A stretch of DNA of 64,000 nucleotides from an uncultured Bacteroidota bacterium (GCA_903844645.1 CAIMUP010000013.1:1428-65427), one strand, 5' to 3'. Positions 49,509 through 53,853 are shown, counted from the first letter of the stretch. Notes: generated by a model from the sequence alone, not told the origin. Made by a program: numbers and translations.

Positions 49509-49913
49509 ATGCATAAAAACCAGGAATCATTCTCTATTAAAAAGCGATTCAACAGCTTCGGATATGCCTTCAACGGCATTAAAATATTATTCAGAACCGA
49601 ACACAATACTTGGCTACATTTATTCGCTACGGTGGCGGTACTTGCGGCAGGATTTTTCTTCCATATTTCGGTTTTGAGTTGGTTTATGCTCGTTGTCGCC
49701 ATTGCTTTGGTTTGGATTACGGAGGCATTAAATACTGCCATCGAATACCTCGTTGATTTGGTTTCTCCCGAGTACCATCCCTTAGCTAAAAAAACGAAGG
49801 ATATTGCGGCAGCGGCGGTGTTCATCGCCTCCTTTTTTGCATTCATATTAGGAATAATAATAGTGTATCACGAGTGGATTTTACACTATCAAACCATTTG
49901 TTTAGGGCTTTGA
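49509..49913 (+). CDS. dgkA: diacylglycerol kinase family (DgkA-like) small membrane kinase
   Basis: It has three TM segments and the conserved EALNTAIEYLVD motif. The start was taken at the ATG one codon after the TTG of the ORF track. Confidence 0.8.
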   Translation: MHKNQESFSIKKRFNSFGYAFNGIKILFRTEHNTWLHLFATVAVLAAGFFFHISVLSWFMLVVAIALVWITEALNTAIEYLVDLVSPEYHPLAKKTKDIAAAAVFIASFFAFILGIIIVYHEWILHYQTICLGL

Positions 49914-49926
49914 AAAGGGAAAAAAG

Positions 49927-50162
49927 CCGACCGGATTTGGGAAAGATGCGGTCGGATATTTCCTTTCTCCGGTCGGATATTTCTTTTTTCCGGTCGGATA
50001 TTTCTTTTTTCCGGTCGGATATTTCTTTTTTCCGGTCGGATATTTCTTTTTTCCGGTCGGATATTTCCTTTTTCCGGTCGGAGATTTCTTTTTTCCGGTC
50101 GGAGATTTCCTGTTTCCGGTCGGAGATTTCCTTTTTCCGGTCGGATATTTCCCGTTACCGAC
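49927..50162. repeat. Array J: 21-bp tandem repeat, about 11 copies
   Basis: The unit is ccggtcggatatttctttttt. The anchor ggtcgga falls at 49950, 49971, 49992 ... 50139. It lies between dgkA and the alpha-oxoamine synthase gene. Confidence 0.95.
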
Positions 50163-50299
50163 CATTAATTTTTGGCTGATTAACGGAAGAAAATATATCT
50201 TTGACCCCTTACCAAAAAAATGAAGCCGCAAAAAGCGATTCCGAAGGACATAAAATGAATGAAACAAAACATAATAGTAAACTTAAAACAGACAGATAA

Positions 50300-51544
50300 A
50301 TGAGAGCACTTGAGAAGAAAATGAAAGCCTATACCGCGCCGGAAGAAGTGAAGGCATTGGGGATTTATCCTTACTTCCGCGAGGTGGGTTCGGGGCAAGA
50401 TACCGAGGTGATGATCGAAGGAAAAAAAGTCCTTATGTTCGGCTCGAACAGCTACATGGGGCTGAATAATCATCCCGAAGTGAAGGCTGCCGCGAAGAAG
50501 GCGATTGATATGTACGGCACGGGATGTTCCGGCTCGCGTTTCTTGAATGGGACATCGGTTATTCACATCGAATTGGAGGAAAAACTGGCGAACTTTGTGG
50601 GCAAGGAAGCGTCCTTGGTTTTCAGTACCGGCTATCAAACAAACCTTGGCGTGGTGGGAACCTTGACGGGTCGGCATGATTATATTATTCTGGATGAATT
50701 GAATCATGCTTCGATTATTGAGGGCAGCAGATTATCGTTTTCGAAGGTCTTAAAATTCAGCCATAATAACATGAATGACTTGGAAGATTTGCTAAAGAAA
50801 TTACCTGCCGATAAGATTAAATTAATCGTTGTAGATGGTATCTTTAGTATGGAAGGCGACATCGCCAAACTCCCTCAAATTATGGCTCTTGCCGCGAAAT
50901 ATGATGCTGCCGTTATGGTGGATGATGCCCATTCATTAGGCGTTCTCGGGAAGACGGGTAAGGGCACGGCAGATCATTATGGTTTGACCGATCAGGTGGA
51001 TATGATTATGGGCACTTTCAGCAAGTCTTTGGCATCCCTCGGGGGCTTCGTGGCGGCGAATGCAGATATTATTAAATACCTTAAGCACCATGCCCGCGCT
51101 TTGATATTCAGTGCAAGCATTCCCCCTGCTTCTGCGGCTACCGCGATGGCGGCTTTGGATATTATTCAGCGTGAGCCGGAACGCATCGTGAACCTTTGGA
51201 AAAATACCCATTACATGATAGCGGAATTAAAGAAAGAAGGCTTCGATTTGGGCATTACCGAGACTCCGATTATCCCAATTTATATTCGCGATAACATGAA
51301 AACTTTTATGTTCACGAAGCGGCTGTTCGATGAGGGGATATTTGTGAATCCTGTGGTTAGCCCTGCCGTGAAAAGCGATTCTTCTTTGATACGAATTTCC
51401 CTCATGGCGACCCATACCAAGGAACAAATTGATAAGACGTTGGAGAAGATTTATATGATTGCAAAGGAACTGGAATTATTCGAATTTCAGGCGACAAATG
51501 CCGGCAATCATTCCAACCATGCTGGCGACGATGATAACTTATAA
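50300..51544 (+). CDS. alpha-oxoamine synthase family PLP enzyme (serine palmitoyltransferase / cysteate acyltransferase / KBL-like)
   Basis: It has [22 protein letters not shown] and the PLP-lysine motif [12 protein letters not shown]. The last 14 codons are encoded by repeat array K. Confidence 0.85.
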
Positions 51545-51691
51545 GGCAATGATGACGCCATTGCTGGCAATGATGACGCCAACGCCGGCAAAGACGACAA
51601 CTACGCTGGCAAAGATGACGTCTACGCTAGCAAAGACGACAACTTTGCTGGCAAAGATGATAGCTTTGCTGGCAAAGATGACAGCTACGCC
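51503..51691. repeat. Array K: 21-bp tandem repeat, 9 copies, starting inside the 3' end of the alpha-oxoamine synthase CDS
   Basis: The unit is ggcaaagatgacnnctacgct. Starts fall at 51503, 51524, 51545 ... 51671. The CDS stop TAA (51542-51544) occupies the seventh codon of unit 2. Confidence 0.9.
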
Positions 51692-51721
51692 ATCCCAAAT
51701 AACCTTAATAATGATATAATT

Positions 51722-52849
51722 ATGGAAATAACAATCAAAAAAGTCGAAAACGGAGCCGATAAGAAGAAGTTTATTGACTTCGTTCATGATTTATATGCCG
51801 ATGATCCGAACTATGTGCCTGAACTTTACATGGCGCAAAGCGATTTGATGAATCCTAAGAAGAATCCTTTCTTTTGGCATTCCAAGGCGGATCTTTTTCT
51901 TGCTGAACGCGATGGAAAAGTGGTAGGAAGAATCGCCGCCATAAGGAATAATAATTATAATGAATACGCGAAAACCAAAGTCGGCTTCTTCGGGTTCTTC
52001 GATGTTATAAATGATTATGAAGTGGCTAAGAAATTACTCGATACCGCTAACGATTGGATTAAAAAGGAAGGCTTGACGGACATTATAGGACCTACAAATT
52101 TCTCTACCAATGAAACTTGCGGCTTATTAGTAGAAGGTTTGGATTCTGCGCCTGTAATTATGATGACTTATAACAAGGCTTATTACAAAACCTTCTTAGA
52201 TAAATATGGTTTTACTAAGCAAATGGACCTGATTGCATACGTCCTGGACCCGATGGATATGCCGGAAAAGCTATTGCGATTAGCAAAAGGGATTGAGGAG
52301 CGTTTGAAGAGAAGAAACATTACCGTCCGCAAGATAAATATGAAGGATTTTAACAACGAAGTAGCCAAAGTAAAGGAAATTTATAATGCTGCCTGGGATA
52401 AAAATTGGGGTTTTGTGCCGATGACGGATGACGAATTCAAATTCCAGGCTAAGGATATGAAAATGATATTAGATAAAGACTTCGCGTATGTAGCCGAAGA
52501 CAACGGAAAGGTCATCGCGTTCTCATTAACTATTCCGAATGTGAACGAGGTGTTCAAAACCATCAAGCGGGGCAGGTTATTCCCGACGGGGCTGTTAAAA
52601 TTAGTATTAAATAAGAGCAAAATATCCAGCGTACGTGTGATTACATTGGGGGTGTTGGAGGAATATCGGAAGCTGGGTATAGACGTCGTGTTTTATGCTA
52701 AGAACATGGAAACCGCCCAACAGAAAAAACTTAAATATGCAGAGGCTTCCTGGATTTTAGAGAACAATAAGGAGATGAATTCTCCCTTAATTTCCATCAA
52801 TGCGAAGCCTTATAAAACATATCGTATCTTTGAGAAGAAGATAGTATGA
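51722..52849 (+). CDS. GNAT-like acyl-CoA N-acyltransferase superfamily protein (tentative)
   Basis: This 375-aa protein has an N-terminal region (…LAERDGKVVGRIAA…GFFGFFD) that resembles acyltransferase folds. Its stop overlaps the next start (ATGA). Confidence 0.55.
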   Translation: MEITIKKVENGADKKKFIDFVHDLYADDPNYVPELYMAQSDLMNPKKNPFFWHSKADLFLAERDGKVVGRIAAIRNNNYNEYAKTKVGFFGFFDVINDYEVAKKLLDTANDWIKKEGLTDIIGPTNFSTNETCGLLVEGLDSAPVIMMTYNKAYYKTFLDKYGFTKQMDLIAYVLDPMDMPEKLLRLAKGIEERLKRRNITVRKINMKDFNNEVAKVKEIYNAAWDKNWGFVPMTDDEFKFQAKDMKMILDKDFAYVAEDNGKVIAFSLTIPNVNEVFKTIKRGRLFPTGLLKLVLNKSKISSVRVITLGVLEEYRKLGIDVVFYAKNMETAQQKKLKYAEASWILENNKEMNSPLISINAKPYKTYRIFEKKIV

Positions 52850-53853
52850 AGAAAGTTCTGATTACTGGTGCTAGCGGCTTTGTTGGTAGCTTCTTGGTGG
52901 AAGATGCCTTAAAAAAAGGCTACGAAGTATATGCCGGAATCCGCGGAAGTAGCAGCCGCAAGTATCTTCCTGATGAACGGATTAAATTTTTATCTCTCGA
53001 CTTCGGGAATACCAATCATCTTACCAAAAGTCTTGACGATTTTGCCCAAGAAAATAACGGCGGTTTCGATTTTATTATTCACGGAGCGGGGATTACGAAG
53101 GCAAATAATATTCAGCATTATTACGATGTCAATTATCTTAATACAAAACATTTTGTCGAAGCATTAATTACCACAAAAACGATCCCGAAAAAGTTTATTC
53201 AGGTAAGTTCGCTCGCCGCTTTTGGTCCGGGCAATCCAAAAACATTAGAGCCGATCAATCATACTCATAAGCCGATGCCGGTAAGTAGTTACGGAAAGAG
53301 TAAATTAGTTGCCGAAGAATATTTTGCTACTCTGAATGACTTTCCTTTTATTATTTTTCGCCCCACGACGGTATATGGTCCGAGGGAGCGGGATCTTTTC
53401 ACGGTTTTCCAGATGGTAAATAATGGTTTTGAATTCTATATCGGGAGGAAACCACAGCATCTTACCTTTATTTATGTCAAGGATTTGGTAACGCTGATGC
53501 TGGATTCGTTGGAGAGGGATATTATTAACAAATCGTACTTTGTTTCGGACGGAAAAAGCTATGAATCGAGCCTGTTGAATACTTATATTAAGCAGGGGCT
53601 GAATAAAAAAACCATCAAACTTACGATGCCGGTCGCGGTGGTGAAGGCTTTGGCGTTTACTTTAGAGAAAAGTTTCGGGTTATTTAATCAAATTCCGACC
53701 TTAAATAGTGAGCGGGTGAAAGAATTTGAGAGTACGAATTGGAAAGTATTCACGGATGACCTTTTCTTAGACTTCAATTTCAAACCGGAGTATGATTTGG
53801 AGCGGGGCGTGATGGAAACCATCGCCTGGTATAAGCAAGAAAAGTGGTTGTAA
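52846..53853 (+). CDS. NAD-dependent epimerase/dehydratase family (extended SDR) reductase
   Basis: It has ITGASGFVGSFL and the catalytic YGKSK (YxxxK). Confidence 0.85.
   Translation: MKKVLITGASGFVGSFLVEDALKKGYEVYAGIRGSSSRKYLPDERIKFLSLDFGNTNHLTKSLDDFAQENNGGFDFIIHGAGITKANNIQHYYDVNYLNTKHFVEALITTKTIPKKFIQVSSLAAFGPGNPKTLEPINHTHKPMPVSSYGKSKLVAEEYFATLNDFPFIIFRPTTVYGPRERDLFTVFQMVNNGFEFYIGRKPQHLTFIYVKDLVTLMLDSLERDIINKSYFVSDGKSYESSLLNTYIKQGLNKKTIKLTMPVAVVKALAFTLEKSFGLFNQIPTLNSERVKEFESTNWKVFTDDLFLDFNFKPEYDLERGVMETIAWYKQEKWL

Follow-up and report, generated by a model that had tools for sequence, protein, structure and literature searches.

A compact spt-bcerS-cerR operon predicted to make ceramides, and the 21-bp repeat arrays around it, in an uncultured freshwater Bacteroidota

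Which lipid would a short run of co-directional genes in an uncultured Bacteroidota bacterium make, and how much of what surrounds those genes belongs to the pathway? The locus lies in a 64,000-nt stretch of DNA (GCA_903844645.1 CAIMUP010000013.1:1428-65427; hereafter, the window) and comprises genes for a DgkA-family lipid kinase (dgkA), an alpha-oxoamine synthase dependent on pyridoxal 5'-phosphate (PLP), a GNAT-like protein and an extended short-chain dehydrogenase/reductase (SDR), with two arrays of 21-bp tandem repeats, J and K, placed before and after the synthase gene. An initial annotation had read the four genes as one cluster for sphingolipid or sulfonolipid synthesis, punctuated by the two arrays. 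Its description of the locus is borne out: a six-frame list of open reading frames (ORFs) contains the four genes on one strand (Table 1), the ATGA overlap between the stop of the GNAT-like gene and the start of the SDR gene can be read directly in the sequence (GTATGAAG), Pfam upholds the four family assignments (DAGK_prokar, 2.6e-36; Aminotran_1_2, 1.8e-59; Acetyltransf_1, a weak 6.7e-07; Epimerase, PF01370, 8.1e-28), and Tandem Repeats Finder (TRF) locates both arrays where they had been reported. Its interpretation can be narrowed considerably. We put at roughly 85% the probability that positions 50300-53853 form a three-gene spt-bcerS-cerR operon for de novo synthesis of (dihydro)ceramide of the bacterial type. 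The pathway itself is already known, and the locus is a compact ceramide operon in an uncultured freshwater Bacteroidota.

The synthase provides the most direct evidence for this reading. With a score of 684.8 bits, the protein clears the cutoff of 640 set for the NCBIfam equivalog NF047600 (SerpalmtaseCFB), the model for serine palmitoyltransferase (Spt) of the Cytophaga-Flavobacterium-Bacteroides group, and it remains below the cutoffs of the models for rival alpha-oxoamine synthases (Kbl, 407 versus 460; BioF, 399 versus 426; ALAS, 272 versus 339; and likewise CqsA) as well as those for Spt enzymes of other clades (beta-proteobacterial, 396 versus 500; alpha-proteobacterial, 331.7 versus 670). 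Its best match among solved structures is the Spt of Sphingobacterium multivorum (SmSPT; 3A2B and 8GUH), with 541 bits and 62% identity across 389 residues as counted from the alignment, and the two solved cysteate acyltransferases, 28eh and 7u7h (A. finegoldii SulA), reach 260 and 232 bits, respectively. The residues that bind the substrate and PLP in SmSPT have been described (PMC10196870): Asn52, Gly80, Ser81, His138, Ser185 and Asp210 correspond to N50, G78, S79, H136, S183 and D208 of the synthase, and Ala212, His213, Thr241, Lys244 and Phe272 to A210, H211, T239, K242 and F270, the sole change among the described residues being Met271, which is replaced by Ile. Lys281 of A. finegoldii SulA has been proposed to discriminate SulA from Spt enzymes, which carry Ala at this position (PMC9304779). 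It lies 30 residues beyond the PLP lysine, and the equivalent residue here, K242 + 30, is Ala272; Ala is likewise found in all 70 of the 70 Spt-type synthases (more than 50% identical) from related Bacteroidota loci. The identification of the enzyme as a Bacteroidota-type serine palmitoyltransferase, with a cysteate acyltransferase set aside, is well supported by these comparisons, and the earlier statement that substrate specificity could not be read from the sequence was too cautious, given that the sequence clearly favours Spt.

The Pfam match covers only the N-terminal part of the 375-aa protein, and among its thousands of Bacteroidota relatives, those with a name are called 'hypothetical protein' or 'GNAT N-acetyltransferase'. 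An AlphaFold2 model built from 54 homologues (predicted local distance difference test, 90.6) has tandem GNATs as its best Foldseek matches in the PDB at 11-15% identity (a clavulanate-pathway tandem GNAT, MAB_4324, a glucosamine N-acetyltransferase and MshD), and a family profile of the protein matched none of the solved structures by sequence. In annotated plasmid and chromid records, tblastn detected relatives that align over the full length and are 31-39% identical, and these come from Proteobacteria, Actinobacteria and Bacteroidales. One of them is E. coli YghO (35% identity over 375/380 residues, E 6e-81), whose gene adjoins those for a fatty acyl-AMP ligase, an epimerase-family protein, an acyl carrier protein (ACP), an alpha-oxoamine synthase and lptG/lptF; another, from Sphingomonas parapaucimobilis (35% identity, E 2e-77), has as its neighbours lptF, lptG and genes for an alpha-oxoamine synthase, an ACP and an NAD(P)H-binding protein. 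On a Streptomyces plasmid, the genes for synthase, GNAT and epimerase overlap at their ends, and Aureispira also carries the three together. The E. coli and Sphingomonas layouts mirror the Caulobacter region CC_1168-CC_1152, in which CC_1162 is spt, CC_1163 acpR, CC_1164 cerR, CC_1165 aasR, CC_1156 and CC_1155 lptF2 and lptG2, and CC_1154 the ceramide synthase (PMC11324152). A figure legend in PMC9386255 lists CC_1154, yghO (ECD_02850) and Swit_3908 together as acyl-CoA N-acyltransferase ('aca') genes required for dihydroceramide synthesis. There is thus a strong case, resting on homology and gene context, that the 375-aa protein is a member of the bCerS (CC_1154/YghO) family, for which N-acylation is predicted; the kinship with bCerS-type enzymes that the initial annotation had considered is upheld by the full-length similarity to YghO and the Sphingomonas homologue.

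The SDR has the glycine-rich NAD(P)-binding motif GASGFVG at residues 8-14 and the catalytic YxxxK motif as YGKSK. It aligns end to end with the epimerase of the E. coli cluster (22% identity, E 5e-26) and with that of the Streptomyces trio (28%, E 3e-39), and because extended SDRs are all alike at such identities, it is synteny that carries most of the assignment to CerR. Its score against the KdsR model NF049977 is 24.6 bits for a cutoff of 400, with a match confined to the N-terminal 84 residues. On this basis, the SDR is predicted to be a ceramide reductase of the CerR (epimerase-family) type.

Synteny was surveyed in one genome per species, which yielded 80 loci with a GNAT protein at 51-83% identity from Chitinophaga, Sphingobacterium, Mucilaginibacter, Pontibacter, Dyadobacter, Rufibacter, Reichenbachiella, Saprospiraceae, a Rikenellaceae metagenome-assembled genome (MAG) and others. 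By local tblastn, the complete spt-GNAT-SDR trio lies on one strand in 63 of these loci, several others being cut by contig ends; 56 of the 63 begin with spt (spt-GNAT-SDR) and 7 with the GNAT gene (GNAT-spt-SDR). The ends of the GNAT and SDR genes nearly always overlap or abut (median gap, about -1 nt), and overlap is also usual between spt and the GNAT gene (median, about -7 nt), which places the 177-nt spt-bcerS spacer of the window among the longest of the 56 spt-first loci. Clustering of the flanking ORFs revealed a myo-inositol-1-phosphate synthase gene adjoining the trio in 38 of the 80 loci and, in up to 36 loci, genes for a PAP2_3 protein, PgpA, a CDP-alcohol phosphatidyltransferase, a fatty-acid hydroxylase, GtrA, DUF5686 and DUF4833, a set which we take to be that of the Bacteroides inositol-lipid and inositol-phosphoceramide loci. 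None of this set occurs in the 64-kb window. In the relatives, the inositol-lipid neighbours provide an independent link between the trio and the metabolism of sphingolipids; DUF5686 and DUF4833 are candidates for new components of the pathway. Among loci L005-L083, the trio together with inositol-lipid genes resembles a larger inositol-phosphoceramide supercluster, as at positions 2237-13947 of L011.

The literature, generalizing from gut Bacteroidales, describes spt, bcerS and cerR as lying apart in Bacteroidota that produce sphingolipids (PMC11334938), and this dispersed layout holds in Bacteroides finegoldii. Contrary to that generalization, our survey shows a compact and often translationally coupled spt-bcerS-cerR operon in most of the non-Bacteroidales Bacteroidota sampled.

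Several observations weigh against a ceramide operon in the window. The SDR shares just 22-28% identity with the reductases encoded in clusters from other phyla, passes no curated NCBIfam equivalog (the best, HpnA, gives 61 bits for a cutoff of 368) and begins directly at the Rossmann motif, without a signal peptide, unlike CerR of Caulobacter, which is reported in the literature to be periplasmic. The connection of the GNAT protein to CC_1154 is one step removed, passing through E. coli YghO and the legend in PMC9386255. The head-group genes that lie beside the trio in many relatives were not found in the 64-kb window. Finally, spt is not adjacent to the GNAT and SDR genes in an 83%-identical relative (L004). 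The layout in that genome (Umea1_bin-0439, positions 6192-9122) has a 551-aa ORF preceding the GNAT-SDR pair in place of spt. A single alpha-oxoamine synthase is encoded within 8 kb, a paralogue with 33% identity that lies on the opposite strand and has Thr at the diagnostic position.

Under the ceramide reading, the three products would act as follows. Spt would join L-serine to a long-chain acyl thioester to give 3-ketosphinganine, the tandem-GNAT protein of the bCerS (Caulobacter CC_1154/E. coli YghO) family would attach the amide-linked acyl chain, and the epimerase-family SDR of the CerR type would reduce the 3-keto group. The comparisons made here establish the family assignments and the operon structure. 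Work on Caulobacter and Bacteroides is the source from which the acyl donors, the final head group and the sequence of acylation and reduction are inferred; the order of the two steps is disputed in the literature, and sequence cannot decide it. The rest of the window reads as an ordinary Bacteroidota chromosome (gyrA, ffh, efp, proteins sorted by the type IX secretion system, an ACP phosphodiesterase and transporters). Nearest to it in the species collection comes an uncultured Bacteroidetes MAG that forms part of a Swedish lake series. An uncultured freshwater lineage of Bacteroidota thereby gains a clear genetic capacity for ceramides, which helps in reading environmental lipidomics. The compact operon, often joined to inositol-lipid genes, is moreover a convenient unit for heterologous reconstitution and could help to test the order of acylation and reduction.

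The sole unusual aspect of the locus is its pair of 21-bp arrays. The initial annotation had regarded them as an oddity of the operon, a view that the rest of the window contradicts: about 16 such arrays, with a period of 21 (or 42 and 63 as higher-order periods) and unrelated units, occupy its spacers, nearly all of them between long ORFs. They are lineage-specific: contigs of the same species (L001-L003) have them too, arrays with other units and positions occur in the 83%-identical genome, a few are present in an 89%-identical one (L087, the closest relative) and there are essentially none in 76 more distant loci. Arrays J and K belong to this lineage- or genome-wide feature and not to the pathway, and the feature merits a study of its own. 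A literature search for 21-bp intergenic tandem arrays in Bacteroidota returned nothing relevant, and no explanation for the fixed 21-bp period emerged.

The history of array K can be followed in some detail. It covers the 3' end of spt, including the last 14 codons and the TAA stop, and most of the spt-bcerS spacer; in register with the copies reported by TRF, three more degenerate units lie upstream of these, beginning at about position 51500, with 14/21, 16/21 and 12/21 matches to the consensus. The closest relative has no array K, a GNAT ATG only 3 nt after the spt stop and a different Spt tail (AAHPHNHDKHPLPTDVEEEL), and for these reasons array K is read as having grown out of the 3' end of spt, giving Spt a new C-terminal tail and creating the 177-nt spacer. 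Its expansion pushed apart two genes that once lay 3 nt from each other. Only one TAA interrupts the reading frame that runs from spt through array K into the GNAT gene. The arrangement is fully explained by an ancestral junction that was already an in-frame TAAgccATG, as in the closest relative, and by insertions in multiples of 21 nt, which preserve the frame; a programmed Spt-bCerS read-through fusion was rejected for this reason. Prediction of promoters and terminators inside array K gave none that was canonical, and an Rfam scan of the whole window matched no family.

Array J differs from array K in its recent behaviour. Three metagenome contigs of the same species (L001-L003), 99.6-99.9% identical to the window over 11-20 kb, differ from it in length only by whole 21-bp units: array J has 10.7, 7.7 and 6.7 copies in these contigs, respectively, versus 9.7 in the window, and the array at 54568 has one additional unit in L002, whereas the copy number of array K is the same in all three. 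The first unit of array J is also the 3' arm and U-tract of a terminator-like hairpin directly past dgkA, whose stem joins CCGACCG and an A-rich 5' arm to CGGTCGG and the U-rich tract of that unit. The 9-nt reverse complement of the array J unit occurs once in the upstream flank, and 0 of 300 random flanks match as well. Array J is thus read as an amplified piece of the dgkA terminator, namely its 3' arm and U-tract, and lies upstream of a candidate promoter for spt. As a general origin of the arrays, amplified terminator arms were rejected; a significant reverse complement in the flank is found only for array J and for an inverted pair of arrays at 61985/62116. Arrays J and K both arose locally, through a tendency of the whole lineage to amplify segments of 21 bp in its spacers.

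Could the arrays nevertheless regulate the operon? Changes in the copy number of array J might tune read-through of the terminator or the strength of the promoter, and array K, as a spacer or RNA element, might uncouple the translation of bcerS from that of spt. Array J does sit between the terminator hairpin and the candidate promoter and varies from 6.7 to 10.7 copies among strains about 99.9% identical, and a 21-bp unit corresponds to two helical turns, such that extra units would leave the sites on either side facing the same way around the helix. Against this stand the unrelated-unit arrays in some 16 spacers of all kinds in the window, their absence from the 76 more distant genomes that have the same operon, the lack of array K in the 89%-identical relative and the negative outcomes of the Rfam scan of the window and of the promoter and terminator prediction in array K; neutral slippage at a mutational hotspot accounts equally well for the polymorphism. 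We consider a regulatory role unlikely. A bolder proposal combines origin and function: the 21-bp arrays would constitute a previously undescribed, lineage-specific and fast-changing class of intergenic repeats that arises in situ from gene 3' ends and terminator arms, with array J serving as a copy-number dial on the ceramide operon. This we hold to be distinctly unlikely, although, if true, such a dial on read-through or promoter activity would produce population-level variation in the sphingolipid content of the outer membrane.

The dgkA gene is real: we identify it on the plus strand as encoding a predicted integral-membrane lipid kinase of the DgkA family, whose product matches DAGK_prokar (PF01219) with 124 bits over positions 1-101/102 of the model, aligns with E. 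coli DgkA structures over residues 15-121 and retains the E/N/E motif (ITEALNTAIE versus IVEILNSAIE in E. coli). Public gene calls on the same-species metagenome contigs missed it and called instead an antisense ORF of 159 aa, without a family match. It starts 30 nt after a lipoprotein-like gene. E. coli DgkA phosphorylates ceramide in vitro; the characterized bacterial ceramide kinase is not known to belong to the DgkA family. Encoded next to the trio and in the same direction, and with its catalytic motif intact, the enzyme could be envisioned to phosphorylate ceramide, or to recycle the diacylglycerol freed by head-group transfer from a glycerophospholipid to ceramide. The comparative evidence points the other way, as just 1 of the 80 loci has a dgkA homologue less than 8 kb from the GNAT gene, there downstream of the SDR gene, and an unrelated 202-aa gene occupies the position upstream of spt in the closest relative; the initial inclusion of dgkA in the cluster is not sustained by these data. 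Within the window, the stable hairpin, array J and the candidate promoter all separate dgkA from spt. This candidate is a consensus match of the Bacteroidetes type, and its TAnnTTTG element occurs 38 times on the plus strand of the window, with about 0.2 expected in the dgkA-spt spacer; a sigma-70 promoter scan was uninformative (20 sites versus 18 expected). In addition, the known bacterial ceramide kinase is an evolutionarily distinct enzyme (PMC10331486). Phosphorylation of ceramide by DgkA is chemically conceivable and without comparative support, a part for dgkA in the pathway is quite improbable, and dgkA is most likely a separate transcription unit that ends in its own hairpin terminator, a neighbour and not a pathway member.

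The sulfonolipid half of the initial proposal, which would cast the synthase as CapB/SulA/CFAT, the SDR as a ketocapnine reductase and the GNAT protein as the missing N-acyltransferase for capnine, is barely credible and was rejected: the chemistry is analogous, enzyme families are shared at the superfamily level, Bacteroidota are the main sulfonolipid producers and the sulfonolipid literature examined names no sulfobacin N-acyltransferase, but the synthase exceeds the Spt equivalog cutoff, scores half as high against the two solved cysteate acyltransferases as against SmSPT and has Ala272 in place of Lys at the proposed SulA/Spt-separating position, the SDR does not match the model of the 3-KDSR family (Tsc10p/BT_0972) to which verified ketocapnine reductases, unclustered with cfat, are related (PMC11211663), a Pfam scan of the 30 long ORFs located upstream of 41.3 kb brought up no cysteate synthase, and Proteobacteria and Actinobacteria, where the GNAT family is also tied to Spt, do not produce sulfonolipids. 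The sphingolipid half stands, on the Spt, the bCerS family, the CerR type and the conserved operon.

Table 1. Features of the predicted ceramide locus and of the surrounding window (positions counted from the first nucleotide of the window)
Feature	Position	Strand	Details
dgkA	49506 (TTG) or 49509 (ATG) to 49913	+	135 aa; six-frame ORF list
spt, alpha-oxoamine synthase	50300-51544	+	414 aa
bcerS-like, GNAT-like	51722-52849	+	375 aa
cerR-like, extended SDR	52846-53853	+	335 aa
Terminator-like hairpin	49912-49969	+	directly past dgkA stop; RNA fold -26 kcal/mol, z -2.8
Array J	49949-50158 (TRF 49949-50152)		10 units of 21 bp, CGGTCGGATATTTCYTTTTTC; dgkA-spt spacer; TRF 9.7 copies, 95% matches
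Candidate Bacteroidetes-type promoter	50171-50203	+	TTTG, 21 nt, TATCTTTG; ~100 nt before spt ATG; consensus match only
Array K	51500-51690 (TRF 51563-51690)		~9 degenerate 21-bp units, GCTGGCAAAGATGACAACTAC; TRF 6.1 copies, 78% matches
Antisense 159-aa ORF	49346-49846 (L001 7604-8083, L002 5430-5909, L003 7688-8167)	- in window	public gene calls
21-bp arrays	1859-2044, 4111-4341, 8711-8919, 28847-29093, 37951-38213, 41289-41426		tandem repeats
21-bp arrays, continued	43868-44152, 49949-50158, 51500-51690, 54399-54722, 58018-58151, 61985-62200		tandem repeats

Two further sites with repeats lie in the window. Adjacent arrays at 61985-62078 and 62116-62200 have reverse-complementary units (TGAAAGACTA... 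and TAGTCTTTCA...) and form a long inverted pair in the spacer between two minus-strand genes. The 1.1 kb past the SDR gene (53854-54978) contains no convincing ORF and two related 21-bp arrays, and within it 54368-54452 and 54475-54559 form an imperfect inverted repeat of 85 nt; no Rfam family matches this stretch.

Among characterized systems, a close counterpart in enzyme content is that of Caulobacter crescentus (Spt, CC_1162/CCNA_01220; bCerS, CC_1154/CCNA_01212; CerR, CC_1164/CCNA_01222), in which the same three enzyme families are encoded by clustered genes. By contrast with Caulobacter, where these genes are spread across 17 genes, the trio of the window forms one tight operon and has no genes for a dedicated ACP (AcpR), an acyl-ACP synthetase (AasR) or LptF2/G2 beside it, and its Spt falls in the Bacteroidota/deltaproteobacterial subgroup instead of the 'Rhodobacteria' subgroup. 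With SmSPT (3A2B, 8GUH), the synthase has all described PLP and substrate residues in common except Met271 (Ile here), and it differs in a C-terminal tail of about 20 residues, encoded by array K, that is absent from both SmSPT and the closest relative. Bacteroides and Prevotella (BT_0870, Spt; BF9343_4218 and BF9343_4240, CerS and CerR homologues) represent the same phylum and the same families, the GNAT protein being 31-33% identical to those of Bacteroides finegoldii, Phocaeicola and Prevotella; the genes are dispersed in Bacteroidales, whereas they form one operon here and in most Chitinophagales, Sphingobacteriales, Cytophagales and Saprospiraceae. The capnine pathway (CapA/Cys, CapB/SulA/CFAT and CapC/KCR) belongs to the same phylum and likewise combines a PLP-dependent alpha-oxoamine synthase with keto reduction and N-acylation, but the synthase described here lacks the SulA Lys281 signature and is far nearer to Spt, and its companion SDR does not match the 3-KDSR-type model.

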